Positions 32,135 to 49,783 are shown, counted from the stretch's first letter. The stretch is DNA of 55,473 bases from Gemmatimonadales bacterium (GCA_041615815.1 JBFJCP010000029.1:1-55473); one strand, 5' to 3'. Made by a program: numbers and translations. Notes: generated by a model not told the origin, from the sequence alone.

Positions 32135-32575
32135 CTACTTGATGGCGATCCGACTCTTGACGGCGGGCTCCGTTTTGGGAAGCCGCAGTGTCAACATCCC
32201 ATCCTCGTAGGTGGCCGCGACCTTGTCGGCCAGAACGGGCTTGGGAAGCCGCAACGACCGAATGAATTTCCCTTCCTCACGCTCTCTCCAGATGTACTCC
32301 TCGCTCTCGTGCTCCTTTCGGAATTCGCGCTTGCCCGAGATCGTGAGCACGTTCTGCTCGAGGCTGACATCCAGGTTCTCCTTGTGAACACCTGGTACCT
32401 CGAGTCGGATGACGAACTCCTTCTCGGTCTCCGAGCAGTCCAGGGCCGGTGCCCACTCTGTCTCGACCAACGGCGCCTCGAAACGACGGAATGGAATGTC
32501 GAACAATCGTTCGAAGAACCGGTCGAATTCCGGCCGAACCCGAGGAACGCTTGGTGCTGGTTTGGTGAGTTTCAT
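32135..32575 (-). CDS. Hsp20/alpha-crystallin small heat shock protein
   Basis: WAPALD, EVPGV, LTISG, GKFIRSLRLP, ATYEDGMLTLRLPK; SD GGAGG. Confidence 0.93.
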   Translation of the reverse strand: MKLTKPAPSVPRVRPEFDRFFERLFDIPFRRFEAPLVETEWAPALDCSETEKEFVIRLEVPGVHKENLDVSLEQNVLTISGKREFRKEHESEEYIWREREEGKFIRSLRLPKPVLADKVAATYEDGMLTLRLPKTEPAVKSRIAIK

Positions 32576-32604: not shown

Positions 32605-32648
32605 ACGATAAAAACGGTCGGGTGAAGCCGACTTGAACCTCGGCTGAA
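32605..32648 (-). promoter_or_regulatory. hsp20 promoter: three 11-nt-spaced TTCA repeats plus -10
   Basis: Minus strand TTCAG (32648), TTCAA (32637), TTCAC (32626); TATCGT starts 16 nt after the last repeat (32610). Confidence 0.7.
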
Positions 32649-32673
32649 CCTCACGTATGGGTCCTCCGGTCGT

Positions 32674-32728
32674 ATGAAGATCCTTTTAATCCGCGCTCAC
32701 CTGGGTCTCATGGCATGCCGTCTACCCT
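32674..32728 (+). promoter_or_regulatory. usp-cbs-cba promoter: 11-nt-spaced repeats plus -10
   Basis: ATGAAG 32674, TTTAA 32685, CTCAC 32696, CTCAT 32707; TACCCT at 32723 (+16). Confidence 0.65.
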
Positions 32729-32766
32729 CCCTCTGTCAGAGCATTTTCCGTCCAGGAGCATTCTCG

Positions 32767-33705
32767 GTGACTCAAATCCAGTGGAAACCCGTTGTCGTCG
32801 GCGTCGACGATTCGACCGAAAGCGCCAGTGCGGCCGCCATCGGATGGAAGATCGCCCAGGCGGCGGGAACCGACTGCTATCTCGTGCACGGCACGCGGGA
32901 GGTCTCCGCCATCCCGGTGGCGCCGCCGCTCCCCCCGTTCGATCCGGCAGAGCTCAGCGAACAGCTCACACAGGCTGCCCGGACGCGGTTGGAGGGTATC
33001 CTGAGTGGTACCGTGCCAGCCGCAGTGCTCGAGCACTTCGAGGTGCGGCTGGGGAACGGTGCCTGGGCCATCCGCCACGCGGTGGAAGACCACGACGCCG
33101 GCCTCGTGGTCGTGGGGGGGAAGCACCACGCGCCGCCTGCCCGATGGCTTGGCGGGAGCACGGCCCACCATGTCGTCCGAACGGTCGACGTGCCCCTGAT
33201 GATCACCTGGTCCCCCCGCCAAGCCGTGCGGCGCATTCTCGTGGCCGTCGATCTCTCCTATGCGGCACAGCCAACCCTCGAAACCGCAGCCCAGTTCGCG
33301 AAGCTTTTCTCCGCCCAGCTTCGCATCCTGCACGTTATCGAGGAACTTCCGTACGTGGCCGAGTTGCCGATGCAGATCGATCCGGAGGACTACCGGCGGC
33401 AGTGCATGGAGCAATTCGGACAGCTGCTCGCACGGGTATTGGGCGACCGCGAGGTCGAGCATGCGGTGCACTCCGGGACACCCTCGAGAGTCATAGTTGA
33501 CGAGAGTGGTTCCTGGGATGCAGATCTGGTTATCGTCGGCTCGCATGGACGGGGATGGGTGGACCGGCTGCTGATCGGCAGCACCACGGAACGGCTCATC
33601 AACCACTTGCCCACGTCATTGCTGGTCGTTCCCGTCCGGGCTTCCGCGGAGCAAAGCACCGTCTTGCGACTCACCGGCGCAACAACTAAACGGGCCAAGG
33701 TGTGA
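32767..33705 (+). CDS. Tandem-domain universal stress protein
   Basis: SD AGGAG then GTG 32767; PVVVGVDDS...LGGSTAHHVV and RILVAVDLS...VGSHGRG...LIGSTTERL. Confidence 0.9.
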   Translation: MTQIQWKPVVVGVDDSTESASAAAIGWKIAQAAGTDCYLVHGTREVSAIPVAPPLPPFDPAELSEQLTQAARTRLEGILSGTVPAAVLEHFEVRLGNGAWAIRHAVEDHDAGLVVVGGKHHAPPARWLGGSTAHHVVRTVDVPLMITWSPRQAVRRILVAVDLSYAAQPTLETAAQFAKLFSAQLRILHVIEELPYVAELPMQIDPEDYRRQCMEQFGQLLARVLGDREVEHAVHSGTPSRVIVDESGSWDADLVIVGSHGRGWVDRLLIGSTTERLINHLPTSLLVVPVRASAEQSTVLRLTGATTKRAKV

Positions 33706-33719
33706 CGGATGAGGCTGCC

Positions 33720-34121
33720 ATGAAAGTCGCCGAATTGATGGAAACGAACCTGAAAGTGGTGATGGATGACACTACCGTGGCCGAGGCCGTCGTCACCTTG
33801 GCCGATGCCCACGTTTCCGCAATGCCCGTGCTGGACCGCCAAAGCCGTTTCGTGGGTGTTCTCTCGACCACGGACGTGCTACAGGCGGAGGCGGAAGCGG
33901 CGAACGCAGAAGAGCGGGAACGGCTGTTCCAAGACACGCTGGTGCGTGAGATCATGAGCACGAAACCGCAGACGGTCGAACCCGATGACGACATCAAGGA
34001 AGTAGCCCAGCGCATGTTGTATCTCGATGTCCACCGCCTGTTCGTCGTGTACGACGGCGAGCTGGTTGGCGTTGTCTCACAAAGCGACATCGTGCGCGCG
34101 GTGGCGACCGCAAAACTGTAA
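33720..34121 (+). CDS. CBS domain pair protein
   Basis: MKVAELM...MPVLD...VGVLSTTD and VREIM...LVGVVSQSD. Confidence 0.88.
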   Translation: MKVAELMETNLKVVMDDTTVAEAVVTLADAHVSAMPVLDRQSRFVGVLSTTDVLQAEAEAANAEERERLFQDTLVREIMSTKPQTVEPDDDIKEVAQRMLYLDVHRLFVVYDGELVGVVSQSDIVRAVATAKL

Positions 34122-34158
34122 GTCTATCCTGTCGTTCCCGGAAAGACCGGAGGAATTC

Positions 34159-34299
34159 ATGAGCGACCTCGATCGCGATGTTGGAAAGCATCCGCGCGGT
34201 ACTCTGGCGATCATGGCCGTGTACGGCGTGGTGTTCGTGCTCGGGTGGCTGGCGCTGTTCTTCTTCGTGTATCTACCGCGCGGCGCCGTGACGAGGTGA
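34159..34299 (+). CDS. cbaD: ba3-type cytochrome c oxidase subunit IIa (46 aa)
   Basis: SD GGAGG; single TM peptide PRGTLAIM...W...YLPRG resembling Thermus subunit IIa; directly upstream of subunit II. Confidence 0.78.
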   Translation: MSDLDRDVGKHPRGTLAIMAVYGVVFVLGWLALFFFVYLPRGAVTR

Positions 34300-34302
34300 C
34301 CC

Positions 34303-34779
34303 ATGCATGTTGACCTATACGAGAAGTTCTGGATGTGGGCCGCAGGCATCATGATCGCGGGATTTCTGGTTATCACCGCGTTCGTGACCGTCTCACAAGG
34401 ACGGGTTCCCCCGAGCCACGTCGAAACGATTGACCCGCAAACCGTTTGGACCGACGCGCGATTCGCCGACCGCGGGGTGAGGACCCAACCCGGCGGCGGC
34501 GTCGAAGTCACGATGATCGCCATGACGTTCGCGTTTCAACCGTCGGAGATTCGCATCCCAGCCGGGAGACCGGTGACGTTTCGCATCACCGCCGCGGACG
34601 TGGTACATGGATTCCAGATTATCGGCACGAACGGCAATACCATGGTGGTCCCTGGGTACGTGAGTCAGTTCACCATGGTGTTCGACACCCCCGGTGACTA
34701 TCTCATCGTCTGCAACGAGTATTGCGGATTGGGCCACCACGGCATGTTCGGCAAGCTGATCGTGGAAGAGGCATCATGA
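34303..34779 (+). CDS. cbaB: ba3-type cytochrome c oxidase subunit II (CuA)
   Basis: One N-terminal TM; DVVHGF and CNEYCGLGHHGM CuA ligands. Confidence 0.92.
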   Translation: MHVDLYEKFWMWAAGIMIAGFLVITAFVTVSQGRVPPSHVETIDPQTVWTDARFADRGVRTQPGGGVEVTMIAMTFAFQPSEIRIPAGRPVTFRITAADVVHGFQIIGTNGNTMVVPGYVSQFTMVFDTPGDYLIVCNEYCGLGHHGMFGKLIVEEAS

Positions 34780-36398
34780 TTCCCAATCGAAGGCTGGCCA
34801 CGGCCAATATCGGCGTTGCAGTGGGCGCCTTCGCGCTGGCCACATTCATGGCCTTCATGCAAGCGCTCTCCCGAGCCAACCTGGACCTGCCCGGGCGGTC
34901 CGCCCGGATGTATTACCTCTCGGTCACGGGCCACGGAGTGTTGATGGCTCTCGTCTTCACGACATTCTTCATCATGGGGATGGGTGTCGCCTTCACGACC
35001 AGAGCGTTGGATCGCCCACTCCGGTTCGCCCGTCTGGGCTGGGTGGGCTTTTGGCTTGGGCTCGTAGGATCGCTCGCTGCCCTGTGGGCAATCTTCTGGG
35101 GCAAAGCGACGGTCCTCTATACGTTCTATCCGCCGCTCCAAGCCCACCCCGCCTTCTACATTGGCCTGACCCTACTCGTGGTCGGCTCATGGCTCTGGAG
35201 TATCGTGATCATCGCGACGTACCTCGCGTGGCGGCGGGAGCACCCGGCGACGCCGGTGCCCCTCGCAGTACACGGCATGCTGGCCACGATCATCGTATGG
35301 CTCATCGCCACCGTCGGCGTTGCCGCCGAGATGTTGCTGCAGCTCATCCCGTGGTCCTTGGGGCTCACGGACACCGTGGACCCGCTGCTCGCGCGAATTC
35401 TCTTTTGGTACTTTGGGCACCCGCTCGTCTACTTCTGGCTCATTCCGGCCTACGTCGTCTGGTACACGGTCTTGCCCAAGGTAGCCGGTGGCAGGTTGTT
35501 CAGTGATCCGCTGGCCCGCATGGTGTTCATTCTCTTCATCGTCTTGTCGACTCCCGTTGGTTTCCATCATCAATTCATGGATCCGGGCGTCCAGTCGGGT
35601 TGGAAGCTCTTCCACACGTTCAACACCTTCGGCATCCTGTTCCCGAGCTTCGTCACCGCGTTCACCATCGTGGCCTCATTGGAAGTCGCAGGCCGGATGC
35701 GGGGCGCCACGGGCTTGTTCGACTGGCTCGGAAAGCTGCCGTGGGGCGATCCGCTCGTGGCCAGCGTTCTCCTCAGCATGTTGTTGTTCGCCGTGGGAGG
35801 CTTTGGGGGAAGCATCAACGCCGCGTTTGGAATGAATGCAACGGTGCATAACACGGCGTGGATCCAGGGACATTTTCATTTGACGGTGGGGACCGCCACA
35901 GCATTGACCTTCATGGGCGTCGCATATTGGCTGGTCCCGAAGCTCGTGGGACGCGACCTCGAATTGGGTCTCCTGGCAAAGGTGCAGCCGTATCTGTGGT
36001 TCCTCGGCATGCTGCTCTTCTCCATCGCCAACCACATCACCGGGCTCATGGGGATGCCGCGCCGCGTGTACGACGCGAGCTACGGCGGGAGCGCCATTGC
36101 GGCCGAGTGGAGCGGACTCACGCTCGTATCGGCCGTCGGTGGCATTCTCCTGTTTCTCAGTGCCGCGTTCTTCCTCTTGGTCATGCTCGGCACCGTGCTG
36201 GCCGGGCGGCGAGCAGAACAACCGGCCCTCGAATTCGCGGCGCCTCTCGAGGGCGCGCCGGAGCGGCGAGGGGTTTGGGACCGCATCGGTCTGTGGGTGG
36301 GTGTGGCCATCGTCCTGGTCGTCATCGCGTATGCGTATCCGCTCATCCAACATCTCCAACTGGAGCGGTTTGGTTCACCCGGATTCCGGCCGTTCTGA
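34776..36398 (+). CDS. cbaA: B-family (ba3-type) heme-copper oxidase subunit I
   Basis: ATGA coupling; TGHGVLM, LYTFYPPL, FWYFGHPLVYFW (His-Tyr), VGFHH, VHNTAWIQGHFH, GMPRR. Confidence 0.93.
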   Translation: MIPNRRLATANIGVAVGAFALATFMAFMQALSRANLDLPGRSARMYYLSVTGHGVLMALVFTTFFIMGMGVAFTTRALDRPLRFARLGWVGFWLGLVGSLAALWAIFWGKATVLYTFYPPLQAHPAFYIGLTLLVVGSWLWSIVIIATYLAWRREHPATPVPLAVHGMLATIIVWLIATVGVAAEMLLQLIPWSLGLTDTVDPLLARILFWYFGHPLVYFWLIPAYVVWYTVLPKVAGGRLFSDPLARMVFILFIVLSTPVGFHHQFMDPGVQSGWKLFHTFNTFGILFPSFVTAFTIVASLEVAGRMRGATGLFDWLGKLPWGDPLVASVLLSMLLFAVGGFGGSINAAFGMNATVHNTAWIQGHFHLTVGTATALTFMGVAYWLVPKLVGRDLELGLLAKVQPYLWFLGMLLFSIANHITGLMGMPRRVYDASYGGSAIAAEWSGLTLVSAVGGILLFLSAAFFLLVMLGTVLAGRRAEQPALEFAAPLEGAPERRGVWDRIGLWVGVAIVLVVIAYAYPLIQHLQLERFGSPGFRPF

Positions 36399-36420
36399 AA
36401 CAGGCACTGGGAGCCATGAA

Positions 36421-36449
36421 CGGGGGACGGCGACATCGCCGCTCCCCCG
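36421..36449. terminator. Hairpin between convergent cbaA and ZIP genes
   Basis: CGGGGGACGGCG...CGCCGCTCCCCCG, GC-rich stem with one bulge. Confidence 0.55.
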
Positions 36450-36460
36450 CTCTGCGCGCA

Positions 36461-37189
36461 TCATAGGGATTGCTGGAAGAGCACCATGGCCACCAAGGTG
36501 AGACTCACCAACAGGGCAACGGCCGGCTTGCGGGCTCGCCCGTAGGCCTCGGGCAGGAGTTCCACCAGCACCATGAAGACCATCGCGCCGGCCGCGAAGC
36601 CGATCCCGTAGGGCAACGCCGCATGAAACGCTTCCACGAACAGAAATGCCGGGACCGCCATGATGGGTTGCGGCAGAGAAGATACCACGCTCCATCCGGC
36701 ACACCCCAAGACCGACACCCCCCGCGGACGAAGCACAGCACTGATCGCGAGCCCCTCGGGGACGTTGTGCACCGCTATGGCCGCTGTAATTACCACGGCC
36801 AGCGTCACCCCCCCACCGAATGCCACACCCACGGCCACGCCTTCTGAAAAGGAGTGCGCCGTCATCACCACTACCATGAGCACCATTTGGCGAGCACCGG
36901 CTCCACGCGCCCTGCCGAACTGGATGTCGTAATGCCCCAGCACTCGCTGAGTGACCAGGATGAACACGACCCCCACCGTCGCGCCCACGATCGTCTGCCA
37001 GGCCCCGAACGCGGTACCCTGCGCCACCAAACCAAAGCTGGCTCCTAACATCAGCCCCGCCGCTGTGGCATTGGCATACGCGACCAGTCGGGTCGATACC
37101 GTCCGGACCAAGGCAAACGGCAGTGCACCGAGCCCGGTGGCCAGCGCGGTGATCAACCCGTACATCAGGACGACCAATGCCGGATGCAT
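36461..37189 (-). CDS. ZIP family metal transporter (ZupT/GufA-like)
   Basis: ATGLGALP, AAGLMLGAS, HSFSEG and HNVPEG, GFAAGAM, ELLPE. Confidence 0.88.
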   Translation of the reverse strand: MHPALVVLMYGLITALATGLGALPFALVRTVSTRLVAYANATAAGLMLGASFGLVAQGTAFGAWQTIVGATVGVVFILVTQRVLGHYDIQFGRARGAGARQMVLMVVVMTAHSFSEGVAVGVAFGGGVTLAVVITAAIAVHNVPEGLAISAVLRPRGVSVLGCAGWSVVSSLPQPIMAVPAFLFVEAFHAALPYGIGFAAGAMVFMVLVELLPEAYGRARKPAVALLVSLTLVAMVLFQQSL

Positions 37190-37217
37190 TCAGCGACTCA
37201 CCGGAGGGCCGCGCTCC

Positions 37218-37949
37218 TCATGGGCCAATTCCCACCAAGAGGACCACCATGCCCATACTCAGGATCGTGACGAGGGCGATCGTGGTTGGTCCGGCCTGCC
37301 GATACGACTCCGGGAGCAGCTCGACCATGACCAGATAGACCAGCGATCCCACGGCAAAGCCCAGCGCCCACTGCAGGGTGGATGGGGCCGCCTGCACGAT
37401 CGCGTATGTGAACACCGCCAGCAGGATCTGGCTGACGTTCGTCACCACCGCGAGGCCAGCAGACTCCCAATGCCCAACGCCGCGACTGGTGAGAATGGCG
37501 GACAGGACGGTCCCTTCCGGAACGTTATGGACGGCGATGGCGAGAGCCATGAACACACCAAAGGGCACGCTCACCACCATCGCGACGCCTATCGCAACGC
37601 CTTCTGGAGCGGCGTGTAGGGTGTTGATGAGCATCACCTTGTAGCCGTAATCGGCACTGGTCTCGCCAATGCGGTTGAGATCCAGATCGGCAGTTTTGGA
37701 CGCGGCGTGCGTGAAGTAGACGAAGGCGACCCCGAGAACTGCTCCCGCCGCCCCAACGGCTGGGCTATGATCGAACCCCGCCACCATGAGGGTGTACGCC
37801 GCGCCGAGCATCAGCCCCGCCGCCAAGGCGTTGGCCCACCCCATCCAGAATGCTGGCGGGCGGGGCCTGAACACCAGCGGAAGTGGACCCAGCGCCGCCA
37901 TCCCGGCGGCGATGGACGCGTAGAGCAGGACGATGAGGGTCAGGTCCAT
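37218..37949 (-). CDS. ZIP family metal transporter, second paralogue
   Basis: AAGLMLGA, HAAPEG and HNVPEG, ELLPE. Start is ATG 37949 or GTG 37961. Confidence 0.85.
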   Translation of the reverse strand: MDLTLIVLLYASIAAGMAALGPLPLVFRPRPPAFWMGWANALAAGLMLGAAYTLMVAGFDHSPAVGAAGAVLGVAFVYFTHAASKTADLDLNRIGETSADYGYKVMLINTLHAAPEGVAIGVAMVVSVPFGVFMALAIAVHNVPEGTVLSAILTSRGVGHWESAGLAVVTNVSQILLAVFTYAIVQAAPSTLQWALGFAVGSLVYLVMVELLPESYRQAGPTTIALVTILSMGMVVLLVGIGP

Positions 37950-38049
37950 GAGCCGTACCACATGAGTCGCTTGAGACAGTAGTCCTGTTGAACTCGGATG
38001 TCACGCCAGCCTGGCAGCCCAGCCGGGCCTTGGGTAAGCTTCCCCACAT

Positions 38050-39288
38050 ATGCCTGAGGTTTCCTCGGTTCAGCGAGGCGCCCTCTGGAAACGCGTCGAG
38101 CGGCTGTGCCGTGCGGCGATCCGCATCACCGCCGAGCACGAGCTCAATCGTGTGCTCCAAGAGGTGGCCGATTCCGCCCGCGAAGTCATCGGTGCCAAGT
38201 ACGCCGCGCTCGGCGTCTTGGATTCGTCGGGGACCGCGCTCGAAACCTTCGTGGTGAGCGGACTCAGTAAGGAAGAGTACGAGCGGATCGGAGACCTGCC
38301 CACCGGAAAGGGGTTGCTCGGGGTGCTTATCGAGCAACCTAAGCCCTTGAGAATCAAGAATTTACGCGAACACCCCCGCGCCCTTGGATTCCCTCGCAAC
38401 CACCCACCGATGCACTCGTTCCTCGGGGTGCCCATTTTGGGCCGGGACGGTCCCATCGGCAATCTCTACCTCACCGAGAAGACAGGCGCCGAGGCGTTCT
38501 CCCGGGAGGACGAAGCCTTGGCCGTGATGCTCGCCGCCCACGTCGCAGTGGCCGTCGAGAACGCGAGGCTCTACGAAGAGCGGGAACGACTCCTCGACGA
38601 GCTGAAGGGACTTCAGGTTTCCCGAGACCGGTTCTTCGCCATGATCAACCACGAGCTGCGCAATGCGCTCACGGCCGTCCACGGCTGGAGTGAGCTTTGG
38701 CTCCGCAAGGCCGGGGACAACCCGCCACGGGCAGCCCGGGAGGTGACGGAGTCGGCCGAGCGCGCCATCCGCCTCCTCGAGGATATGCTCGATCTCAGTC
38801 GACTCGATGCGGACAAGCTCAAGCCCCGGATCGAAGATGTCGAGATGGGCGGCGTCGTGCGGGAGTCGGTCGCGTCCCTGGAGCCGGCCGCTCACCACCG
38901 GGGCGTTCGGATCGAAACCGTCGGGGCCTCCGACCCGCAGCTCTGTCGTTCTGACTCGCTACGCATCCGACAGATCATGGTCAATCTCTTGAGCAACGCT
39001 GTGCGGCACAGCCCGGAAAACGAGACCGTGACGGTCGAGCTGCGCGTAGACGACGCGAGTCTGGAGCTGCATGTCGTGGATCGAGGCGAGGGGATCCCCG
39101 TGGCGCAACAAGCCCTGATCTTCGAGGCGTTCGAGCGGGCCGGCGCTGACCAGGAGCGGGGGACGGGACTGGGCCTCACGTTGTCCAAGAAGTTGGCGCA
39201 CCTCTTGGGTGGCGACCTAACCGTTGCCAGTCAACCTGGTGCTGGCGCAAGGTTTACGTTGCGAATCCCGCGGTGGTCGCAATCATGA
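38050..39288 (+). CDS. Soluble sensor kinase: DosS/DosT-like GAF domain plus HisKA/HATPase
   Basis: GAF with PKPLR...GFPRNHPPMHSFLGVPI...GNLYLTEK; NHELRN, NLLSNAVR, DRGEG, GTGLGL; no TM. Confidence 0.9.
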   Translation: MPEVSSVQRGALWKRVERLCRAAIRITAEHELNRVLQEVADSAREVIGAKYAALGVLDSSGTALETFVVSGLSKEEYERIGDLPTGKGLLGVLIEQPKPLRIKNLREHPRALGFPRNHPPMHSFLGVPILGRDGPIGNLYLTEKTGAEAFSREDEALAVMLAAHVAVAVENARLYEERERLLDELKGLQVSRDRFFAMINHELRNALTAVHGWSELWLRKAGDNPPRAAREVTESAERAIRLLEDMLDLSRLDADKLKPRIEDVEMGGVVRESVASLEPAAHHRGVRIETVGASDPQLCRSDSLRIRQIMVNLLSNAVRHSPENETVTVELRVDDASLELHVVDRGEGIPVAQQALIFEAFERAGADQERGTGLGLTLSKKLAHLLGGDLTVASQPGAGARFTLRIPRWSQS

Positions 39289-39339
39289 AGACCGGTTCAC
39301 GACCTCTTCAAATGGGGATCAGCCATGCGCGGATAGCCT
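39285..39339 (+). promoter_or_regulatory. Response-regulator promoter: 11-nt-spaced repeats plus -10
   Basis: ATGAAG 39285, TTCAC 39296, TTCAA 39307, ATCAG 39318; TAGCCT at 39334 (+16), 7 nt before the ATG. Confidence 0.7.
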
Positions 39340-39346
39340 TCTCCGC

Positions 39347-40033
39347 ATGAGAATCCTGATCGTGGAAGACGACCGGAAGGTCGCCGGGTTCATCGAGATG
39401 GGTCTTCGCGAAGAGGGCTACGCCGTCGACGTCGCCAAGGACGGCGATGAGGCTTCCACGTTGGCCCACGTGAACGACTATGATGCCATCTTGTTGGACC
39501 TCATGCTTCCCAAGAAGAACGGCCTGCAGGTGGCGTCCGAGCTTCGGCGTGAGGGTCGCCGCACACCCATTCTCATGTTGACCGCTCGCGATGCTACGGA
39601 AGACGTGGTGCGCGGCCTCGATGCCGGTGCGGACGACTACCTCACCAAGCCCTTCAAGTTTGACGAGCTGCTGGCCCGAGTACGCGCGCTGGTGCGGCGT
39701 GGCGGGAGTGCGAGGCTCGAACGACTCACCTACGGGCCGCTGGAGTTGGATCGGTTGAAACACCGCGCGTTCGCCGGAGGCAGACGCCTGGAGCTCACGC
39801 CTCGGGAGTTTCAACTCCTAGAGCACTTCATGCTCCATCCCGAGAACGTGGTACGCCGTACGGAGTTGCTCGAGAAGGTCTGGGATATGCACTTCGATCC
39901 CGAGAGCAACGTCGTCGATGTTCACGTCGGTAATCTGCGACGCAAGCTCCGCGAAGCGGGCCACGATCGAATCATCATGACGGTTCGTGGAGTGGGATTC
40001 CAGCTGAAGGTGCCGGACGGCGACGAGGCCTGA
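39347..40033 (+). CDS. OmpR/PhoB family response regulator (CusR/MprA-like)
   Basis: MRILIVEDD, LDLMLP, GADDYLTKPF, winged helix LTPREF...SNVVDVHV...TVRGVG. Confidence 0.94.
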   Translation: MRILIVEDDRKVAGFIEMGLREEGYAVDVAKDGDEASTLAHVNDYDAILLDLMLPKKNGLQVASELRREGRRTPILMLTARDATEDVVRGLDAGADDYLTKPFKFDELLARVRALVRRGGSARLERLTYGPLELDRLKHRAFAGGRRLELTPREFQLLEHFMLHPENVVRRTELLEKVWDMHFDPESNVVDVHVGNLRRKLREAGHDRIIMTVRGVGFQLKVPDGDEA

Positions 40034-41415
40034 TGCGTTCGCTGCGCCGCACGCTCGCGGTGCGGTTTAGTGTTACCGTCTTCTTTGCGCTGTTGTTGAT
40101 TGCGCTGTGGGCCTATCTGGGTGCACAGCGCATTCTGCGTGCGGAGTTGGACCGCGGCCTAGCGGCGGCCTGCGAACTGGAAGGCGCGGTCTTGGCCGCA
40201 GGTCTCGAACTGCCCACCCACCCAGGACCCCAAGACCTCGAGCGCTTCGTCGCCACGGTCAACCGCTTCGTCGCGATCAGGAACGCCGACGGCTCGATCC
40301 GACAAACCAACACGCCGCTAGCCCAGGACCTTCCGGCCGACCCGGTGAGCGTCGCCCAGGCCGGAGGCGGCGCCCGCAGCTGGAAGTCCGAGCGATGGAA
40401 AGGCCAACGGATCCGCTCCGTGTACGGCCCGGTTCCGGGAAGCACGGACGGCCGCGTGATCCAGGTATCCGCGTCCTTGATTCCCCTACGGGCCGCCAAT
40501 CGAGAGATCCTCTTTTTGATGCTGGGCACAGTGCTTTTGGGCACGGTGGCAACCTCGCTCGGAGCCGCATGGCTCGCGGGCTCCGCCGTCCAGCCGGTCA
40601 TGGACATCACCGCCCAGGCGGAGGAGATCGGCACGGGACGACTCGGACACCGCATCACTGCTCACTGGGATGTGGCCGAGTTTCAGGGACTCGTGCGAGT
40701 CCTGAATGGCATGTTGAAGCGTTTGGACAGCATGCTGGAGTCACAGCGGCGCATGGTGGCAGACGCTGGCCATGATCTCCGTACCCCGCTCACGGCCATG
40801 CGGGGGGAGATCGAAGTGGCCCTTCGAGGCTCGCGATCGCCAGACGAATATCGCCAGGTGCTTCACAGTGTCATGGAGGAGGTGGATAGACTGGGATCGA
40901 TCTCCGAGTCCCTGGTGCTCCTGGCGCGGGTGGAGGGCGGCACCCTCGTTCCAAGCCCCGTGCCCTGTGATCTCATCGACTTGCTCGAGGGAGCGGTGCG
41001 GCGAGCACAGGCTAGAGGAGGCGACCGCACATTCGGACTGACGTCGCCGGTGGCCATCCCACAAGTCGAGGTCGATCAGCGGATGCTGACGATCGTGTTC
41101 GACCATTTGCTGGATAACTGCCTACAGCACACTCCACCCGGAACCGCGGTCGAGCTCTCCATAACACGAGACGGCCGCTGGGCCAGAGTCGACGTGGATG
41201 ACGATGGCCCGGGGGTCCCCACCGAGGGGTTGGAACGGCTCTTCGACCGGTTCTATCGAGACGACACAGCGAGGACCCGAACGGCCGGAGCTGGACTCGG
41301 CTTGTCCATTGCCTCGGCCATCGTGGGCACGCATGGCGGCAGGATCGAGGCTGCCCGGAGCCGGTTGGGGGGTCTACGTGTGACGATCCGTCTGCCGCTC
41401 CTCCGCCAGAGTTGA
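40033..41415 (+). CDS. Membrane HAMP-domain sensor histidine kinase
   Basis: TGATG coupling; 2 TM, HAMP, DAGHDLRTPL, DDGPG, FDRFYR, GAGLGL. Confidence 0.92.
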   Translation: MRSLRRTLAVRFSVTVFFALLLIALWAYLGAQRILRAELDRGLAAACELEGAVLAAGLELPTHPGPQDLERFVATVNRFVAIRNADGSIRQTNTPLAQDLPADPVSVAQAGGGARSWKSERWKGQRIRSVYGPVPGSTDGRVIQVSASLIPLRAANREILFLMLGTVLLGTVATSLGAAWLAGSAVQPVMDITAQAEEIGTGRLGHRITAHWDVAEFQGLVRVLNGMLKRLDSMLESQRRMVADAGHDLRTPLTAMRGEIEVALRGSRSPDEYRQVLHSVMEEVDRLGSISESLVLLARVEGGTLVPSPVPCDLIDLLEGAVRRAQARGGDRTFGLTSPVAIPQVEVDQRMLTIVFDHLLDNCLQHTPPGTAVELSITRDGRWARVDVDDDGPGVPTEGLERLFDRFYRDDTARTRTAGAGLGLSIASAIVGTHGGRIEAARSRLGGLRVTIRLPLLRQS

Positions 41416-41421
41416 GCCGCT

Positions 41422-41465
41422 TTCACTTTACGTTCCAAAAAACTTCACAGCACGATTTGCACGTT
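41422..41465 (+). promoter_or_regulatory. DUF2892 promoter: 11-nt-spaced repeats plus -10-like hexamer
   Basis: TTCAC 41422, TTCCA 41433, TTCAC 41444; CACGTT at 41460 (+16). Confidence 0.62.
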
Positions 41466-41502
41466 GCCGAGAGAGACTTGGCTCGAGCGCAGGAGACAAG
41501 CC

Positions 41503-41721
41503 ATGCAACGTAACGTTGGGCGGGCGGACGCTTGGATTCGAGGAGGGTTGGCCGTTTTGTTATTTGGGATGGCTGCCATCTTGAACCATCTCTCCCTCGT
41601 CTCTCTCGCGGCCGCTCTCGCAGCACTCATCCTGGTGGGAACCGCACTGACCAGGAGCTGCCCGTTGTATCGAGTGCTGGGCATCGACTCTCAGCGCGAT
41701 CGCCGGACGGGTCACGCGTGA
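41503..41721 (+). CDS. DUF2892 (YgaP-like) small membrane protein
   Basis: SD AGGAG; NVGRADAWIR, two TM, SCPLYRVLGI. Confidence 0.85.
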   Translation: MQRNVGRADAWIRGGLAVLLFGMAAILNHLSLVSLAAALAALILVGTALTRSCPLYRVLGIDSQRDRRTGHA

Positions 41722-41857
41722 TCCGTCCGGCCCCCCGTCCGCGGGTGGCGTCGATGGGTCCTCCTCATCTAATTTCCGGCCTCATGACACCGACCGCTTC
41801 CGCCACGGTGGGTGGCTCGAAGCATGTCGTGCTGGACTTCTACAAGGAGAAGAGGCC

Positions 41858-42250
41858 GTGCGCAGAATAGTCTCGATGCTCGTGGTGGTTGGGCTCGTCC
41901 TCACCGCTTCCTCAGTTCTCGCTCAGGTTCCCGACTCGCTGCCGGAAGGGGTCACGGCAAAGATGGTGTCCGACGGGAGCACGCTGTTTTCCGGCCAGGG
42001 GATCTGCGTTGCCTGCCACGGTCCTCAGGGCAAAGGCATCCCCAATCTGGGGACCGATTTGACGGACGCAGAGTGGACGCACAGTGACGGCTCGTACAGC
42101 GGCATTCTCGAGACCATCCGGCAGGGTGTCACCGCTGACAAGTCCACCAGCGGCGTGGCGATGCCACCAAAGGGCGGGAGCAACCTCAACGACGATCAGT
42201 TGAAAGCGGTTGCGGCCTACGTCTGGAGTCTGGTTCGGGCCAAGAAGTAA
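41858..42250 (+). CDS. Periplasmic monoheme cytochrome c
   Basis: Signal peptide ending VLA; CVACHG; distal AMPPKGG. Confidence 0.88.
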   Translation: MRRIVSMLVVVGLVLTASSVLAQVPDSLPEGVTAKMVSDGSTLFSGQGICVACHGPQGKGIPNLGTDLTDAEWTHSDGSYSGILETIRQGVTADKSTSGVAMPPKGGSNLNDDQLKAVAAYVWSLVRAKK

Positions 42251-42292
42251 CGACCGCTCGCAACGCAACCCAGAACGGGAAGGGAAACGTCC

Positions 42293-43405
42293 GTGTCATT
42301 GTGCACGACCTGGCGCCGCGCCACCGTCACCGGCGCGTGTGGATTGGCAGCTCTAATGGTGCTCGCCGGTGTAGCAGTCAACACGGGCCAGGCGCAGGTG
42401 GAAGTCAATTCCCGTGCGGTCGAAATCACGCTCACGGGCAGACTCCACGCCCAATTCAATACCACTTCCGTCTTGGACGAGCCCGACGCCGAGTTTCTCG
42501 TCCGCCGCGCGCGATTCACTGCGGACGTCACCATCAACGACTTCGTCAGCGGCCGTATCCAGCCGGACTACGGTGAGGGGAAGATCTCGTTGAAGGACGC
42601 TTTCGTGCGGCTCACCTTCCATCCTGCGTTTCGCGCCACCATGGGCCAGTTCAAGCGCCCATTTGATCTGTTCGAGCTCACTAGCTCGACACAGATCCTC
42701 GTGATCGAGCGCACCGGCGAGGTGCGGGGCGTGGACACCTGCAGCGGTCCTGGTGGTACTTGCTCGTTCAGCCGCCTCACGGAGAAACTCCAACTGTCCG
42801 ATCGTGACATCGGGGTCATGTTCGACGGGACCGACCCATCAGGGCTGGTGCAGTACATGGTCTCCGTCACCAACGGGACCGGCCAGAACACCGAAGACGA
42901 GAACGGGGCGAAGTCCTTCACGGGTCGGATCGAGCTGACTCCGTTTCCCAACGTCACGGTCGCCGGCAATGTCGCTGCTCATGACTACCTGCTGCCGGTG
43001 ACTCCCACGGTGGCGGAGAATGAGTACGCCGTGGCCTTCGGGGGCGACGTGGAACTCGGCAATTACGATGGCGGCATCCACTTCCAAGGCGGTGTGGCTG
43101 CCGGCGACAACTGGCTCAACCTCGCGGCCGGAACGCCCACGTCGTTCTTGACCGCGCAGGGAATCCTCACGTGGAAGGTGCCCTTTCAGCCCAACCGGCT
43201 CGCCTCGGCCATCGAGCCGGTCGTCCGCGTCAGTTGGGCCGATCCCGACACCGACACGGCTGACGACGACGGCATCTTGGCCACCGGCGGGCTGGTGGTT
43301 CATTTCGTGGGTAGAAACAAGATCGCGGCCAACGTGGACGTTTGGTCGCCACGGGTCGGAGACACTGAGTACTCCCTTAAGGTTCAGTCTTACTTGCACT
43401 TCTGA
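42293..43405 (+). CDS. Outer-membrane porin, OprO/OprP-like
   Basis: Signal peptide; FLVRRAR, LKDAFV, GQFKRPF, RDIGV; C-terminal YLHF. Exact start uncertain. Confidence 0.72.
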   Translation: MSLCTTWRRATVTGACGLAALMVLAGVAVNTGQAQVEVNSRAVEITLTGRLHAQFNTTSVLDEPDAEFLVRRARFTADVTINDFVSGRIQPDYGEGKISLKDAFVRLTFHPAFRATMGQFKRPFDLFELTSSTQILVIERTGEVRGVDTCSGPGGTCSFSRLTEKLQLSDRDIGVMFDGTDPSGLVQYMVSVTNGTGQNTEDENGAKSFTGRIELTPFPNVTVAGNVAAHDYLLPVTPTVAENEYAVAFGGDVELGNYDGGIHFQGGVAAGDNWLNLAAGTPTSFLTAQGILTWKVPFQPNRLASAIEPVVRVSWADPDTDTADDDGILATGGLVVHFVGRNKIAANVDVWSPRVGDTEYSLKVQSYLHF

Positions 43406-43408
43406 CTC

Positions 43409-43464
43409 TTTAAAAAGTCTTCATAATCCCGCCACACCTCCTTCATGGCGGGCCCCGTTACTTG
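43409..43464 (+). promoter_or_regulatory. nos operon promoter: 11-nt-spaced repeats
   Basis: TTTAA 43409, TTCAT 43420, GCCAC 43431, TTCAT 43442; TTACTTG at 43458 (+16, imperfect -10). Confidence 0.58.
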
Positions 43465-43573: not shown

Positions 43574-44011
43574 ATGTCCCTGCGAATTCTGGCGGCGTGT
43601 GCCGTCCTGGTGACCATCGGTTGCTCCGGCGGCGACGGCGAGGAAGCTGCACCCCCGGTATCACAAACGACCACGACCGCCGCAGCGTCAGTCGCCCCAC
43701 CACCGACTGGCCCCATCGACCAAGCTCTGGCGACTCGCGGAGAGCAGCTCTTCCAGAGCAAAGGGTGCATCGGGTGTCACACGATCGGCGGAGGCCGCCT
43801 CACCGGGCCAGATCTCCAGGCGGTAACCACCCGTCGAGAGTATGGGTGGATCATGGCCATGATCATCAATCCCGACTCGATGCTCAAAGCCGACGCTACG
43901 GCACGTCAGCTGTTCGCCGAGTACATGACCCCCATGATGAACATGGGCGTCACACCGGAGGAAGCACGAGCGATATACGAACATCTCAGAAGAGCCGCTG
44001 GCGCGAACTGA
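43574..44011 (+). CDS. nosC: Monoheme cytochrome c lipoprotein upstream of nosZ (NosC-like)
   Basis: Lipobox VTIG-C, Thr/Ala/Pro linker, CIGCH, GPDL, PMMNM. Confidence 0.8.
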   Translation: MSLRILAACAVLVTIGCSGGDGEEAAPPVSQTTTTAAASVAPPPTGPIDQALATRGEQLFQSKGCIGCHTIGGGRLTGPDLQAVTTRREYGWIMAMIINPDSMLKADATARQLFAEYMTPMMNMGVTPEEARAIYEHLRRAAGAN

Positions 44012-44046
44012 CGCGCCATCCAAACAACATTTTTTAGGAGCGCCAG

Positions 44047-46008
44047 ATGCGATCCAACCGATTCTTGTGGACCCTTTCCTCGGCTGCCGTTGTCGCCGTC
44101 TTGGCGGTCGTGGGCGCGCAATCTTGCGCGGGGCCCGGTGCAACGACCGATGTCAGCTCTATCGCCCGGCAACGAAATCTCACCGATGCCGATGTGGTGG
44201 CGGCCCTCAAGACCTATCAGCCCACGGGCCGAATGGACGAGTACATCCTGTTTGGCTCCGGCGGACACTCCGGACAAGTTCTGGTCATTGGGGTGCCCTC
44301 GATGCGGCTCCTCAAGGTGATTGCCGCATTCACGCCAGAGCCTTGGCAGGGGTTCGCCTACGGCGCCGAGGAGCACAAGACATTGCTGGCCAGCGGTCGG
44401 ATGTCCGGTCACGACATCACGTGGGGTGATACCCATCACCCGGCGTTATCGGAGACGGATGGCGACTACGATGGGCAGTTCCTATTCATCAACGACAAAG
44501 CCAACCCTCGGATCGCGTTGATCGATCTCCGCGACTTCGAGACCAAGCAGATCGTCACCAATCCCAACATGGGGACCAACCACGGCGGCGCCTTCGTCAC
44601 GCCAAACACGGAGTACGTCATCGAGGGGGCGCAATACGCGGTTCCCCTCTGGACCGATTACGCCGACGTGGATCGCTACCAAGAGGATTACCGCGGTCTC
44701 GTGACCCTGTGGAAGTTCGACCGGCAACGCGGTCGGATCGACCAGGCGAGCTCCTTTTCGATCGAGTTACCGCCGTACTGGCACGACCTGTCCGACGCCG
44801 GAAAAGGACCTTCGGCTGGGTGGGCATTCCTGAACTCGTTCAATACCGAGATGGCCACTGGCGGCATCGAAGCCGGCAACCCACCGTTCGAAGCCGGCGC
44901 GTCCCAGAACGACATGGATTATCTCCATATCATCAATTGGGAAAAGGCGGCCCAGGTGGCAGCGCAGGCGGGCAAAACGCGCATGGCGCGGGGCCAACGC
45001 GTGATTCCGCTCCAGACCGCCATTGACGAGGGACTGCTCTTCTTCGTCCCCGAGCCCAAGAGCCCTCACGGATCAGACGTCACGCCTGACGGCCGCTACA
45101 TCATCGTCTCGGGTAAGCTGGATCCCCATGTTACGGTCTACTCATGGGAGAAGATCAAGCAGGCCATCGACGCCAAGAACTTCAGTGGCACCGATTCTTA
45201 CGGGGTGCCGGTGATCGACTTCAGCTCGGTGATCGACGGACAGCTCGAGGTGGGCCTGGGCCCATTGCACACCCAGTTCGACGACCAGGGGAACGCGTAC
45301 ACCAGCATTTTCCTCGATACCAAGGTGACGAAGTGGAGCTTGAATCCGCTCGCGGTGGTCGACCAGATCGATGTGCACTACAACGTCGGGCACTTGGCGG
45401 CGGCGGAGGGTGATACCCGCTCACCGGACGGGAAGTACCTGATTTCGATGAACAAGTGGTCCATCGATCGGTTCAACGACGTGGGCCCTCTCCTCCCACA
45501 GAACTTCCAGCTGATCGACATCTCGGGCGAGCGGATGCAGCTCCTGTACGACATGCCGATCGGGATCGGCGAGCCGCACTACGCGCAAATGATCAAGGCG
45601 GACAAGCTGCAACCGTTCCGCGTGTACCCGCAGATCGGCTATGACCCCGGCACGATGAGCGCCGCCAGAAACGCCGTGATGGGTGGCCAAGAGGGCATCC
45701 AGCGTAGCGGCAATCAGGTGACCGTACGGATGACGGCGATCCGTAGTCACTTCACACCGGAGTACATCCGTGTGCGGCAGGGTGATCGTGTAACGATCCA
45801 TATCACCAGCATCGAGCAGGCTCACGACGCGACCCATGGCTTTGGGATCTCGAAATACAACATCAACCTGAGCCTCGAGCCCGGAGAGTCTCAGACCGTC
45901 ACGTTCGTGGCCGATCAAGCCGGCGTATTCCCCTTCTACTGCACCGAATTCTGCTCGGCGCTGCACCTGGAGATGACGGGTTATCTCCTGGTAGAGCCGA
46001 GGGGCTAA
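44047..46008 (+). CDS. nosZ: Clade II (Sec-type) nitrous oxide reductase
   Basis: No twin-arginine; SGGHSGQ, GVPSMR; CuZ His motifs DTHH, NHGG, SPHG, PLHT, VGH, EPH; CuA THGF...CTEFCSALHLEM. Confidence 0.97.
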   Translation: MRSNRFLWTLSSAAVVAVLAVVGAQSCAGPGATTDVSSIARQRNLTDADVVAALKTYQPTGRMDEYILFGSGGHSGQVLVIGVPSMRLLKVIAAFTPEPWQGFAYGAEEHKTLLASGRMSGHDITWGDTHHPALSETDGDYDGQFLFINDKANPRIALIDLRDFETKQIVTNPNMGTNHGGAFVTPNTEYVIEGAQYAVPLWTDYADVDRYQEDYRGLVTLWKFDRQRGRIDQASSFSIELPPYWHDLSDAGKGPSAGWAFLNSFNTEMATGGIEAGNPPFEAGASQNDMDYLHIINWEKAAQVAAQAGKTRMARGQRVIPLQTAIDEGLLFFVPEPKSPHGSDVTPDGRYIIVSGKLDPHVTVYSWEKIKQAIDAKNFSGTDSYGVPVIDFSSVIDGQLEVGLGPLHTQFDDQGNAYTSIFLDTKVTKWSLNPLAVVDQIDVHYNVGHLAAAEGDTRSPDGKYLISMNKWSIDRFNDVGPLLPQNFQLIDISGERMQLLYDMPIGIGEPHYAQMIKADKLQPFRVYPQIGYDPGTMSAARNAVMGGQEGIQRSGNQVTVRMTAIRSHFTPEYIRVRQGDRVTIHITSIEQAHDATHGFGISKYNINLSLEPGESQTVTFVADQAGVFPFYCTEFCSALHLEMTGYLLVEPRG

Positions 46009-46033
46009 CGAAGGACAGATCAACTCCCCCGTT

Positions 46034-46073
46034 ATCCCGCCCATCCCCGCTAGGCTCGAGGGATGGGCGGGAT
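46034..46073 (+). other. Stem-loop between nosZ and nosB
   Basis: ATCCCGCCCATCCC-N12-GGGATGGGCGGGAT, perfect 14-bp stem without a U-tract. Confidence 0.7.
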
Positions 46074-46100
46074 GGCCGAAGGGGCGAGACACCAACAACC

Positions 46101-46703
46101 ATGGACAAACTCACTTCGTTCTTTCAGGGCCAGCTCTCCAATACGAGCCGGATCCTCATCGTAGTCGCGACGCTCGCGATCTTACCAAGCATCTTTCTGC
46201 CTACGTGGACTATTACGCTCCGGGCACCACAGTATCCGCAGGGCCTCGAGCTCACGATCTATCCGAATACCGTGGGCGGTGACGTGCGCGAGATCAACAT
46301 CCTGAACCACTATATCGGGATGCACGAGATCGAGGCAGACGAGTTCCCGGAATTTCGTTTCATCCCTTTCTTCATTCTTCGGTTTCTCGGATTTGCGCTC
46401 CTGACCGCTCTGATTGGCCGTATGCCGATCGCTGCGCTGGGTTGGATGGACTTCGTGCTTTTCGGGATGGTGATGCTCTACACCATGCAGCATTGGCTCT
46501 ATGAGTTCGGGCAGAACCTCTCGCCAAACGCGCCGCTCCAGGTAGATCCGTTCGCGCCCAACCTGCTGGGGACCACGACCGTGGGTCAGTTTGCCGTGGC
46601 GAGTTGGCCGGCCACCGGAGCCATCCTCATGGCTTTGGCCGGCCTCATCGGTCCGGTGATCGTGCTGTTTGAGTGGCGGCGCATGCGGCGGTCTCCGGGA
46701 TGA
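46101..46703 (+). CDS. nosB: NosB-like membrane protein of clade II nos clusters
   Basis: PTWTITLRAPQYPQGL, EINILNHYIGM, WLYEFGQNL; position directly after nosZ. Confidence 0.85.
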   Translation: MDKLTSFFQGQLSNTSRILIVVATLAILPSIFLPTWTITLRAPQYPQGLELTIYPNTVGGDVREINILNHYIGMHEIEADEFPEFRFIPFFILRFLGFALLTALIGRMPIAALGWMDFVLFGMVMLYTMQHWLYEFGQNLSPNAPLQVDPFAPNLLGTTTVGQFAVASWPATGAILMALAGLIGPVIVLFEWRRMRRSPG

Positions 46704-48960: not shown

Positions 48961-49783
48961 CCAGAAACTCCCCCGAACGGTTTTGTTCGTGCAGCGAGAG
49001 CTTGCTGCCTCATTCCGGGCCCGATGGTTCTTGGTGTACTCGATTGCGTTTCTCGTCAGTGGACTGTTGTTGGCGGCGTTCGGAGCCGGTGACGTCGCCA
49101 TCCATGGATATCGCGGTTTCGCCCGAGCGTTTGCGGGACTCGTCCATCTCGCCTTGCTCTTCGTCCCGCTGATGGCACTCTTCCCTGCCACCGCAGCAAT
49201 CGCAGAGGAGCGTGAGAGCGGCGCTCTGGAGTATCTCCTGGCGCAACCGATCACTTTCGGCGAAGCATTCGTCGGGAAATGGGGCGGCGTGAGTGTGGCC
49301 GTGTTCCTCGCGCTGACCATCGGGTTTGGAGCCGCGGGCACTGTGGCGGTCATGCGAGGTGTTCCTGTCGCGCTGCTGGTGGCTCTGTACGGCTTCGTGG
49401 TCCTCCTGGCGCTCGCGTTCGTCTCCGTGGGCCTGCTGATCTCCACCCTCGTTACCTCCCGAGCTCGCGCAACCACCCTCGGTGTGCTCACGTGGTTGAT
49501 CCTCGTCGCGCTTGGGAGCCTGGGAATTCTCGTCGCATTCGTACGATGGGGAATCTCGGAGAATCTGTTGGTGTTGTGGTCGTTTGCGAATCCGGTCGAA
49601 GCGTTTCGCTTGGGGATCGTGGGCATCCTGGACGCAGATCTCAGCTTGCTGGGACCAGTGGGCGCGCAAGTCATGGATCGCTTCGGCCCGGTCGGCACAC
49701 CGGCCCTGGCTGCCGTGACCCTCGTCGTGTGGATCGTCGTGCCTGGGCTCCTGGGCTGGCTCCGGTTTCGCCGGCCCGCATGA
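48947..49783 (+). CDS. nosY: ABC permease NosY
   Basis: SD GGAGG; VPLMAL, ERESGALEYLLAQP, NPVEAFR; about 6 TM. Confidence 0.9.
   Translation: MPTPSQKLPRTVLFVQRELAASFRARWFLVYSIAFLVSGLLLAAFGAGDVAIHGYRGFARAFAGLVHLALLFVPLMALFPATAAIAEERESGALEYLLAQPITFGEAFVGKWGGVSVAVFLALTIGFGAAGTVAVMRGVPVALLVALYGFVVLLALAFVSVGLLISTLVTSRARATTLGVLTWLILVALGSLGILVAFVRWGISENLLVLWSFANPVEAFRLGIVGILDADLSLLGPVGAQVMDRFGPVGTPALAAVTLVVWIVVPGLLGWLRFRRPA

Follow-up and report, generated by a model that had tools for sequence, protein, structure and literature searches.

A 55,473-nt stretch of DNA from a Gemmatimonadales bacterium (the window; contig C29 of a 4.19-Mb genome, 95.7% complete) contains five promoter regions with arrays of TTCA-like units 11 nt apart, including those in front of a ba3-type oxidase unit, a clade II nitrous oxide reductase (nos) cluster and the gene for an OmpR/PhoB-family response regulator at 39347. 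About 40-50 promoters genome-wide bear such arrays, and these are likely binding sites of the 39347 regulator. We consider it probable that this regulator, when phosphorylated by a DosT-type kinase at low O2, binds the arrays and activates a ba3/clade II nos programme. An initial annotation of the window had proposed an OmpR-family regulon in which the regulator controls its own gene as well as nos, ba3 oxidase and stress-protein genes. Site conservation and phylogenetic profiling supported that proposal; DNA binding, activation and signal are predictions from sequence.

Phased TTCA arrays in the window and the genome

Every pentamer and -10-like hexamer that had been listed for the five gaps was found at its position, as was ATGAAG at 32674 and 39285 (Table 1). 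Sites were scored with a model trained on 45 regulator promoters of relatives and on no DNA from the genome that contains the window. This model, which superseded a 7-promoter model, permits both -10 registers and a degenerate middle unit. The five sites were the five best in the window (55 kb, both strands), with the next independent site scoring 14.6. With the 7-promoter model, scores for usp, DUF2892 and nos reached no more than 8-11, outside the top 60, and these three sites are therefore regarded as medium-strength; the usp array contains three degenerate units. The array of the regulator ends 7 nt before its ATG.

The motif also stood out from background across the genome. Upstream regions were defined by an in-house, crude gene finder, so that genome-wide counts are approximate. 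Scores of at least 18 were reached in 40 of 2189 upstream regions, against 0.6 in doublet shuffles (maximum 3 in 20), and scores of at least 16 in 52, against 2.0 in the shuffles. In period controls, 1 and 0 regions reached 18 at periods 12 and 13, respectively, with at most 4 at either threshold. An earlier model, combined with exact dinucleotide shuffles, gave 28 of 2188 upstream regions against 0.85 expected. Distances between TTCA units in upstream DNA peaked at 11 nt (48 pairs) and 22 nt (20 pairs), with no more than 9 pairs at any other distance, while TGAA stood 10 nt ahead of TTCA in 18 upstream pairs, the peak of the corresponding histogram.

In its full form, the site reads TGAAG-N4/5-(C)TTCA-N7-TTCA(-N7-TTCA), and its last unit precedes a -10 hexamer by 15-16 nt. 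Orthologous regulator promoters share aTGAAg-N5-cTTCA-N7-TT(T/C)A-N7-TTCA, followed by TAnnnT at an offset of 16 nt (30 cases) or 15 nt (15 cases). The -10-like hexamer previously placed at +16 held as a class, since in the genome of the window nAnnnT occurred at +16 in 21 of 52 promoters and at any other offset in no more than 6. The nos hexamer is an exception: TTACTT has no A at position 2 and falls outside nAnnnT. ATGAAG, originally described as lying one period further upstream, is present there, and we read it as an inverted half-site of the motif, because the consensus of orthologous promoters begins with it. In 46 of 70 loci, TAnnnT of the regulator promoter sits 5-10 nt ahead of the start codon, so the regulator mRNA is likely to be leaderless. 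At two divergent gene pairs (G000:C15:30210-31732 and C8:16792-18585), one central inverted pair was accompanied by direct units extending in both directions, likely a bidirectional layout; similar pairs were noted elsewhere.

A consensus sigma-70 -35/-10 pair was found in none of the five gaps (4 sites overall, against 3.6 expected). Together with the fixed distance of 15-16 nt between arrays and nAnnnT, this points to activator geometry, which speaks against repression at part of the sites, an option considered below.

The repeats might also be a by-product of base composition, stop codons or helical-period DNA, without any regulatory role. Three of the five window sites are degenerate, and TGA or TAA of the half-site doubles as the stop codon of the preceding kinase gene in 47 of 68 regulator promoters (including TGA of ATGAAG at 39285). 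The half-site is kept in 16 other loci whose kinase stop lies elsewhere, and it recurs in nos promoters. Counting against a by-product are the period-specific enrichment over shuffles, the absence of sites scoring at least 15 from all 277 convergent gaps (earlier model) and the joint loss of arrays and regulator within genera. Moreover, arrays scoring at least 16 were conserved in relatives' loci before 7 of 11 hsp20, 20 of 41 usp and 10 of 13 DUF2892 genes, but before none of 21 zip, 26 membrane-kinase or 23 cytochrome c genes, nor before porin or nosD. This explanation is already largely refuted, and we regard it as scarcely credible.

The initial annotation had confined the regulon to five transcription units. 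All five carry sites, but its extent was underestimated: the motif occurs genome-wide and the regulon is about ten times larger. USP-domain genes in units with a site of at least 16 numbered 6 of 9, against 95 of 3579 genes overall, and the ba3 oxidase unit bears a site. Among the products of other units with a site were Hsp20, CBS proteins, a nitroreductase, two phosphoribosyltransferases, two hemerythrins, LonC and FtsH, as well as a di-heme cytochrome c peroxidase, ccmE-F-H, four multiheme cytochromes and Sqr-like/DsrC/DsrE proteins. A Na/Ca exchanger together with a P-type ATPase, copper-binding proteins and numerous unknowns completed the list, whereas the annotated targets included no identified copper-efflux pump. 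Two A-type oxidases, a second B-like oxidase, four other full-length OmpR regulators and rex had no site of their own. The hpf and dodecin genes are not firm targets, since they lie at least 170 nt behind a site-bearing gene and have no site themselves. Taken as a set, the targets (USPs, Hsp20, CBS, ba3 oxidase, peroxidase, multiheme cytochromes) resemble the DosR/FNR hypoxia set.

Several multiheme cytochrome and porin operons also carry arrays (G000:C20:57224-88419 and C18:73877-77297), which suggests that extracellular electron transfer is part of the same regulon. At G000:C36:4309-9059 (L118, L243), an array lies upstream of a gene for a single-heme protein with a Cyc2-like label and no Pfam hit, which precedes succinate dehydrogenase/fumarate reductase genes and has homologues in 8 of 70 regulator loci. 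The second B-like heme-copper oxidase locus (G000:C15:6185-14221; L242), which also encodes SCO, an Rrf2 regulator and a divergent cytochrome b/4Fe-4S/FlpD gene, showed no TTCA array.

Co-occurrence of arrays and regulator in related genomes

Comparisons covered 121 genomes, 70 distinct regulator/kinase loci and 69 kinase sequences. An orthologue of the 39347 regulator (at least 71% identity) was present in 71 genomes. The exact triple TTCA-N7-TTCA-N7-TTCA was found in 55 of these (229 sites) and in 10 of the 50 regulator-negative genomes (17 sites); reversed-pattern controls gave 0 in most genomes. Two of the ten (G040 and G114) are incomplete members of an otherwise regulator-carrying genus. 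To limit kinship effects, the comparison was also made within genera: across seven genera of one family (51 genomes), an exact site in either pattern occurred in 30 of 36 carriers versus 1 of 15 non-carriers; none of 200,000 permutations within genera gave so strong a contrast. Of 70 orthologues, 52 share the same recognition helix, 14 deviate from it at one or two residues and 4 fall outside the pattern read. In G041 and G141, the regulator and the sites are present and the kinase was not found.

At the sequence level, the regulator combines a receiver with phospho-Asp and a Trans_reg_C winged helix, and its presumed sites, tandem units with a spacing of about 11 bp, stand where a -35 element would be expected, both as in the OmpR/PhoB family. 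Its best match in the Protein Data Bank (PDB) is PrrA.

It is very unlikely that the arrays are bound by another protein, such as a paralogous OmpR regulator, Rex, a CRP-family protein, the NarL/LuxR protein at 27301 or an alternative sigma factor. Two paralogues with similar recognition helices, Rex and two CRP-family proteins are encoded in the genome, and Rex half-sites likewise read TGAA/TTCA. However, half-sites are spaced TGAA-N6-TTCA here versus N4 for Rex, and the paralogues and rex lack a site of their own. CusR-like paralogues (47-53% identity) are kept in several regulator-negative genomes without sites and therefore do not explain the motif; this cross-genome profiling covered regulator paralogues and LuxR, and not Rex, CRP-family proteins or sigma factors. 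The earlier observation that the gaps hold no FNR box (consensus TTGAT-N4-ATCAA) was borne out, the best match deviating at 3 positions in the gap before the regulator and at 5 in the remaining gaps. Scans with consensus motifs did not detect FNR, CRP, Rex, DosR or CusR-type palindromes in the gaps, where FNR, CRP and Rex would need 3-6 mismatches; the DosR core was absent from the window. Neither CRP-family protein of the genome contains cysteines, and with no FNR box in the gaps an FNR/CRP regulon failed this comparison.

The NarL/LuxR gene and its GAF-HisKA_3 partner (27301-29402) were considered as a DosR-like cause and rejected: the LuxR gene was found in 3 of 121 genomes and the GAF domain lacks the heme-His stretch. 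Beside the cluster, window positions 26703-30477 encode a receiver protein, this pair and an M50-CBS protease, with no array.

NosZ was encoded in 53 of the 121 genomes. Regions of 1.5 kb upstream of nos were scored in 50 of them; G029, G059 and G063 were dropped for having less than 700 nt upstream. When these orthologous regions were checked, as the initial annotation had suggested, arrays of at least 16 were present in 27 of 38 regulator-positive versus 0 of 12 regulator-negative genomes, and arrays of at least 12 in 31 of 38 versus 1 of 12. Other periods reached 16 in 6 of 38 genomes. The arrays mostly lay 480-710 nt before nosZ, ahead of nosC. Array-bearing NosZ lineages ranged from 38% to 88% identity to the NosZ of the window, some having only 38-47%. 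The nosZ gene shared a fetched locus with the regulator in 17 of 70 cases, and the gene for ba3 subunit II in 18 of 70.

Two further nos-related loci deserve mention. In G002, a nos-type array (L001:13343-13410; score 19.1) lies behind a porin gene and nos genes were not found in the genome, possibly a footprint of nos loss. In G010 (L003:7063-8400), nosC and nosZ are separated by a gene in the reverse orientation that was judged by eye to be Rrf2-like, and nosZ is directly preceded by two TTCA units, possibly a second layer of nos control.

Window organization, sensor kinases and origin of the system

From 32135 onwards, hsp20 (minus strand) is followed by usp, cbs and three ba3 oxidase genes (plus strand), two ZIP transporter genes (minus strand) and then the GAF-HisKA kinase, OmpR regulator, membrane kinase, DUF2892, cytochrome c, porin and clade II nos genes (Table 1). 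The oxidase subunit I matches ba3 oxidase 1EHK (E 2.6e-121), and its unit, with intergenic gaps of at most 120 nt, would be co-transcribed with usp; DUF2892, cytochrome c and porin genes probably also form an operon. NosZ scored 870 bits with the Sec-dependent model TIGR04246 (cut-off 625) and 431 with the TAT model (cut-off 625), which places it in clade II; the TIGR04247 match in the cluster scored 394 bits (cut-off 300). A Pfam search with the 200-aa membrane protein of the cluster gave zero matches. Elsewhere in the window (6901-9573), a stand-alone A-PCP-thioesterase protein resembling nonribosomal peptide synthetases is encoded beside a Rieske oxygenase and two flavin oxidoreductases.

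Table 1. Genes and candidate regulatory arrays in the window (positions counted from its first nucleotide; individual motif positions and model scores are given for arrays).
Feature	Coordinates	Strand	Matches, motifs and score
Hsp20 small heat-shock protein (candidate target)	32135..32575	-	PF00011
hsp20 array and -10	32605..32648	-	TTCAG 32648, TTCAA 32637, TTCAC 32626, TATCGT 32610; score 24.4
usp-cbs-cbaDBA array	32674..32728	+	ATGAAG 32674, TTTAA 32685, CTCAC 32696, CTCAT 32707, TACCCT 32723; score 18.2
Tandem USP and CBS-pair genes (candidate targets)	32767..34121	+	PF00582, PF00571
ba3-type (B-family) oxidase: small subunit, subunit II, subunit I	34159..36398	+	subunit I vs 1EHK
Soluble sensor kinase: DosT/DosS-type GAF (Gly55, His118, Tyr140), HisKA (His201), HATPase	38050..39288	+	
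Regulator (putatively autoregulatory) array	39285..39339	+	ATGAAG 39285, TTCAC 39296, TTCAA 39307, ATCAG 39318, TAGCCT 39334; score 27.4
OmpR/PhoB-family response regulator (Asp51)	39347..40033	+	PF00072 and PF00486, both above cut-off
Membrane HAMP-HisKA kinase, CopS/CusS-like	40033..41415	+	TIGR01386 221 bits, below 293 cut-off
DUF2892 array	41422..41465	+	TTCAC 41422, TTCCA 41433, TTCAC 41444, CACGTT 41460; score 18.4
DUF2892 (YgaP-like) gene, monoheme cytochrome c, porin (candidate target)	41503..43405	+	PF11127, PF00034, PF07396
nosC array	43409..43463	+	TTTAA 43409, TTCAT 43420, GCCAC 43431, TTCAT 43442, TTACTT 43458; score 18.8
Clade II nos cluster: cytochrome c, NosZ, 200-aa membrane protein, nosD, nosF, nosY	43574..49783	+	TIGR04246, TIGR04247, PF00034
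nos cytochrome c (nosC)	43574-44011	+	PF00034
Sec-dependent NosZ	44047-46008	+	TIGR04246

The soluble kinase encoded at 38050 is likely a heme gas sensor and the cognate kinase of the regulator, to judge from gene order and conserved residues. Its gene, which has no array before it, lies directly upstream of the regulator gene in 69 of 70 distinct loci, and both co-occur in 68 genomes (kinase in 70, regulator in 71). The protein has a single GAF domain (residues 30-170), HisKA (PF00512) and HATPase domains and no membrane segment; in its AlphaFold model (pLDDT 85.6), a long helix leads from the one GAF to the kinase core. The best solved relatives of the GAF are DosT (2VZW, E 1.9e-39) and DosS. 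His118 (68 of 69 sequences), Tyr140 (68 of 69) and Gly55 (66 of 69) align with the proximal His, distal Tyr and channel Gly of DosT (His147, Tyr169 and Gly85), whose roles are described in PMC4082495; that paper also notes that the Gly/Glu interpretation is disputed. The phospho-acceptor His201 is kept in 69 of 69.

Within the family to which the window belongs (f1), the kinase was found in 92 of 112 sampled genomes; it was also found in 7 of 138 others in the phylum and, within the relatives set, in 7 of 24 genomes of family f3. At least 1635 proteins matched at E of 1e-60 or below when 8000 candidates were scored, and the 120 matches listed had generic names or none. Of 47 loci with such a GAF outside Gemmatimonadota, 38 had a full-length NarL/LuxR gene; an OmpR gene (35-44% identity) was present at 6, in one case nearby (L089). 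A plasmid search gave 9 matches, all GAF-only, and no full-length homologue. At L047-L049, two of which derive from Methylomirabilota records, GAF-kinase proteins with 38% identity are followed by a receiver-only match instead of a full OmpR gene.

With the same kinase, regulator and sites, the trigger could be NO, CO or the redox state of the heme, or repression could occur at part of the sites. DosS/DosT respond to O2, NO and CO and possibly to redox (PMC4082495, PMC8534201); ArcA sites of 2-5 repeats at 11-bp spacing occur in repressed and activated operons alike (PMC3798270); and the targets include hemerythrins, a nitroreductase and a peroxidase. On the other side, Gly55 is the DosT-type residue tied to stable O2 binding, an interpretation that the source calls uncertain (PMC4082495), and the promoter geometry described above is that of an activator. 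We consider this variant unlikely.

The membrane kinase encoded at 40033 follows the regulator in 29 of 70 loci and was rejected as the main partner on this gene order. Of the 41 loci without it, 35 have at least 1.6 kb of downstream DNA, sufficient to reveal its absence. In the quick tree, it is missing throughout a clade with SH-aLRT branch support of 99 (28 rows, one a long-branch paralogue), in which strong regulator and nos arrays were kept, and at L017 its orthologue has Arg in place of the phospho-His. Its sensor region contains 1 His here versus 4-6 in the sister clade. Helix alpha-1 of the regulator does not vary with the presence of the membrane kinase and is different in the sister clade. 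The membrane kinase would thus be dispensable across the clade, possibly serving as a second input, and the likely input of the system is the DosT-type heme-GAF kinase.

That a copper or envelope cue, sensed by the membrane kinase, is the main input in this lineage, matching expression of ba3 oxidase and NosZ to copper supply with the GAF kinase as an accessory, is quite unlikely in our judgement. The best NCBIfam models for the regulator and the membrane kinase are the heavy-metal pair TIGR01387 and TIGR01386, but both scores are below cut-off (232 versus 279 and 221 versus 293 bits, respectively). ZIP transporters are encoded in the cluster and copper-binding proteins are among the targets, although zip genes were without a site and annotated targets without a copper-efflux pump. 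The frequent absence of the membrane kinase, its His-poor sensor region and the L017 substitution also count against this input. Neither a local efflux regulon nor an obligatory membrane kinase, as in CusRS/CopRS, was found here; both occur in the sister clade only. There, the closest outgroup regulators (61-68% identity) have a membrane kinase only, and genes next to them encode, at 3 of 5 loci, a multicopper oxidase, an outer-membrane efflux protein or a pump of the AcrB family. Because sister regulators adjoin such copper-resistance genes, a CopRS-like regulator was likely rewired to oxygen; the heme kinase would have been added later to a copper-type pair, an order of events taken from a midpoint-rooted, quick tree. 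A TTCAT repeat is reportedly recognized by cyanobacterial CopR/NrsR, which is not used as evidence here. The TTCA unit itself looks inherited from a copper-type regulator, because Corynebacterium glutamicum CopR binds TGAAGATTT-nn-TGAAGATTT, which corresponds to TTCA at period 11 on the other strand (PMC3140484).

Proposed mechanism, known systems and significance

The mechanism that we favour starts from what is visible in the sequence, namely arrays that are enriched and conserved and that covary with the regulator. By homology to DosT, heme in the GAF domain would be held by His118, with Tyr140 reading the distal ligand, and the kinase would be off with oxy-heme and on with deoxy, NO or CO heme. 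Gene order suggests that phosphate then passes from His201 to Asp51. If they behave like other family members, phosphorylated dimers would occupy an inverted pair (TGAAG-N4-CTTCA) and then further TTCA units, arranged head to tail at intervals of one helical turn. They would thereby take over the role of the -35 element and recruit polymerase to a -10 located 15-16 nt past the last unit. Through its probably leaderless promoter the regulator would amplify itself, the kinase gene having no site. As to origin, a CopRS-like copper pair may have gained the heme kinase upstream, after which many lineages would have lost the membrane kinase.

Several observations weigh against this mechanism. Sixteen of the 71 regulator-positive genomes lack the exact triple, and 11 of 38 regulator-positive nos promoters score below 16. 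The carrier contrast for nos is confounded with kinship, since of the 12 nos genomes without the regulator 11 come from a single other family (f2), and the nos -10 hexamer is poor. TTCA at period 11 is not exclusive to the 39347 regulator, as sister-clade loci have local arrays, and the tree evidence rests on the quick version. In the genome of the window the membrane kinase is kept with His and G-boxes intact, so that a second signal is possible. Some targets (a Ser/Thr kinase, an NtrY-like sensor, copper-binding proteins and unknowns) are not obviously hypoxic. Finally, the C. glutamicum CopR site has the same unit on the opposite strand (PMC3140484).

The kinase core of DosS/DosT is of the HisKA_3 type. 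Resemblance to these sensors lies in the soluble, heme-type GAF with matching proximal His, distal Tyr and DosT-type Gly (PMC4082495) and, for DosT, in a sensor gene without the regulator's site. The minimal DosR regulon consists of USPs and nitroreductases (PMC11876180), DosR-related proteins include a phosphoribosyltransferase and an M50 protease (PMC7753917) and an S30AE protein is among DosR-type targets (PMC3390679). These types overlap with the target set found here, which is similarly rich in USP and nitroreductase genes. Conversely, DosS/DosT have two tandem GAFs (PMC8534201), whereas the kinase studied here has one GAF and HisKA (class I). Its partner is OmpR-type instead of NarL/LuxR, the class found at most GAF loci outside Gemmatimonadota; the sites are phased TTCA units instead of the DosR palindrome; and respiratory modules (ba3, nos, multiheme cytochromes) are added to the regulon.

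Likeness to CopRS/CusRS comprises the nearest family models, the copper-resistance genes beside the sister clade and the TTCA unit at period 11. In contrast, C. glutamicum CopR has one site per genome (PMC3140484), versus 40-50 here, the membrane kinase is often lost, the heme-GAF kinase is the constant partner and family scores are below cut-off.

ResDE and PrrAB are OmpR-family regulators responding to low oxygen or redox, and PrrA is the best solved relative of the 39347 regulator. ArcA likewise exerts OmpR-type global control of respiration through sites of 2-5 repeats at 11 bp (PMC3798270), but its unit differs in sequence and an inverted half-site is part of the array found here. What ArcB and SrrB sense is redox state or quinones, and not a gas at a GAF heme (PMC8534201). 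For clade I nos, PMC10100939 describes FNR-type regulators and low-oxygen induction of nosZ. The same paper reports that Gemmatimonas aurantiaca expresses nosZ with O2 present. Low-oxygen induction would be shared with FNR/DNR/FixK2 control; unlike there, no FNR box is present and control would run via phosphorylation, on a clade II operon. By these comparisons, the system appears similar to DosS/T-DosR in sensor and targets and to ArcA/PhoB in promoter geometry, and a member of neither DosSR nor CusRS/CopRS. A literature search (Gemmatimonadota, clade II nosZ, DosR, OmpR/CopR), with most subscription papers outside its coverage, found no description of the pair or the motif.

We lean, if only slightly, towards a wider interpretation, in which a DosT-type sensor on a class I kinase and an ex-copper regulator form the family's master hypoxia switch, directly control clade II nosZ and converge on a DosR-like dormancy regulon, with several distantly related nos operons each having gained the same array. 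Clade II N2O reductase is common among Gemmatimonadota (53 of 121 genomes here). Now that a specific sensor, a regulator and a motif can be named, control of clade II nosZ by O2 becomes testable in a heterologous host without culturing. Array presence sorts genomes into those with nos predicted to be induced at low O2 and those under other control (0 of 12 regulator-negative genomes with an array), which could help to explain differences in O2 tolerance among N2O sinks. In terms of signalling, the system is a candidate natural rewiring, in which a heme gas sensor switched from NarL-class to OmpR-class regulators and what had been a copper regulator became a global hypoxia regulator. If true, it would be the first defined O2-sensing regulator with a scannable motif for N2O reduction in the phylum, a natural DosT-OmpR hybrid and a low-oxygen switch for uncultured N2O consumers.

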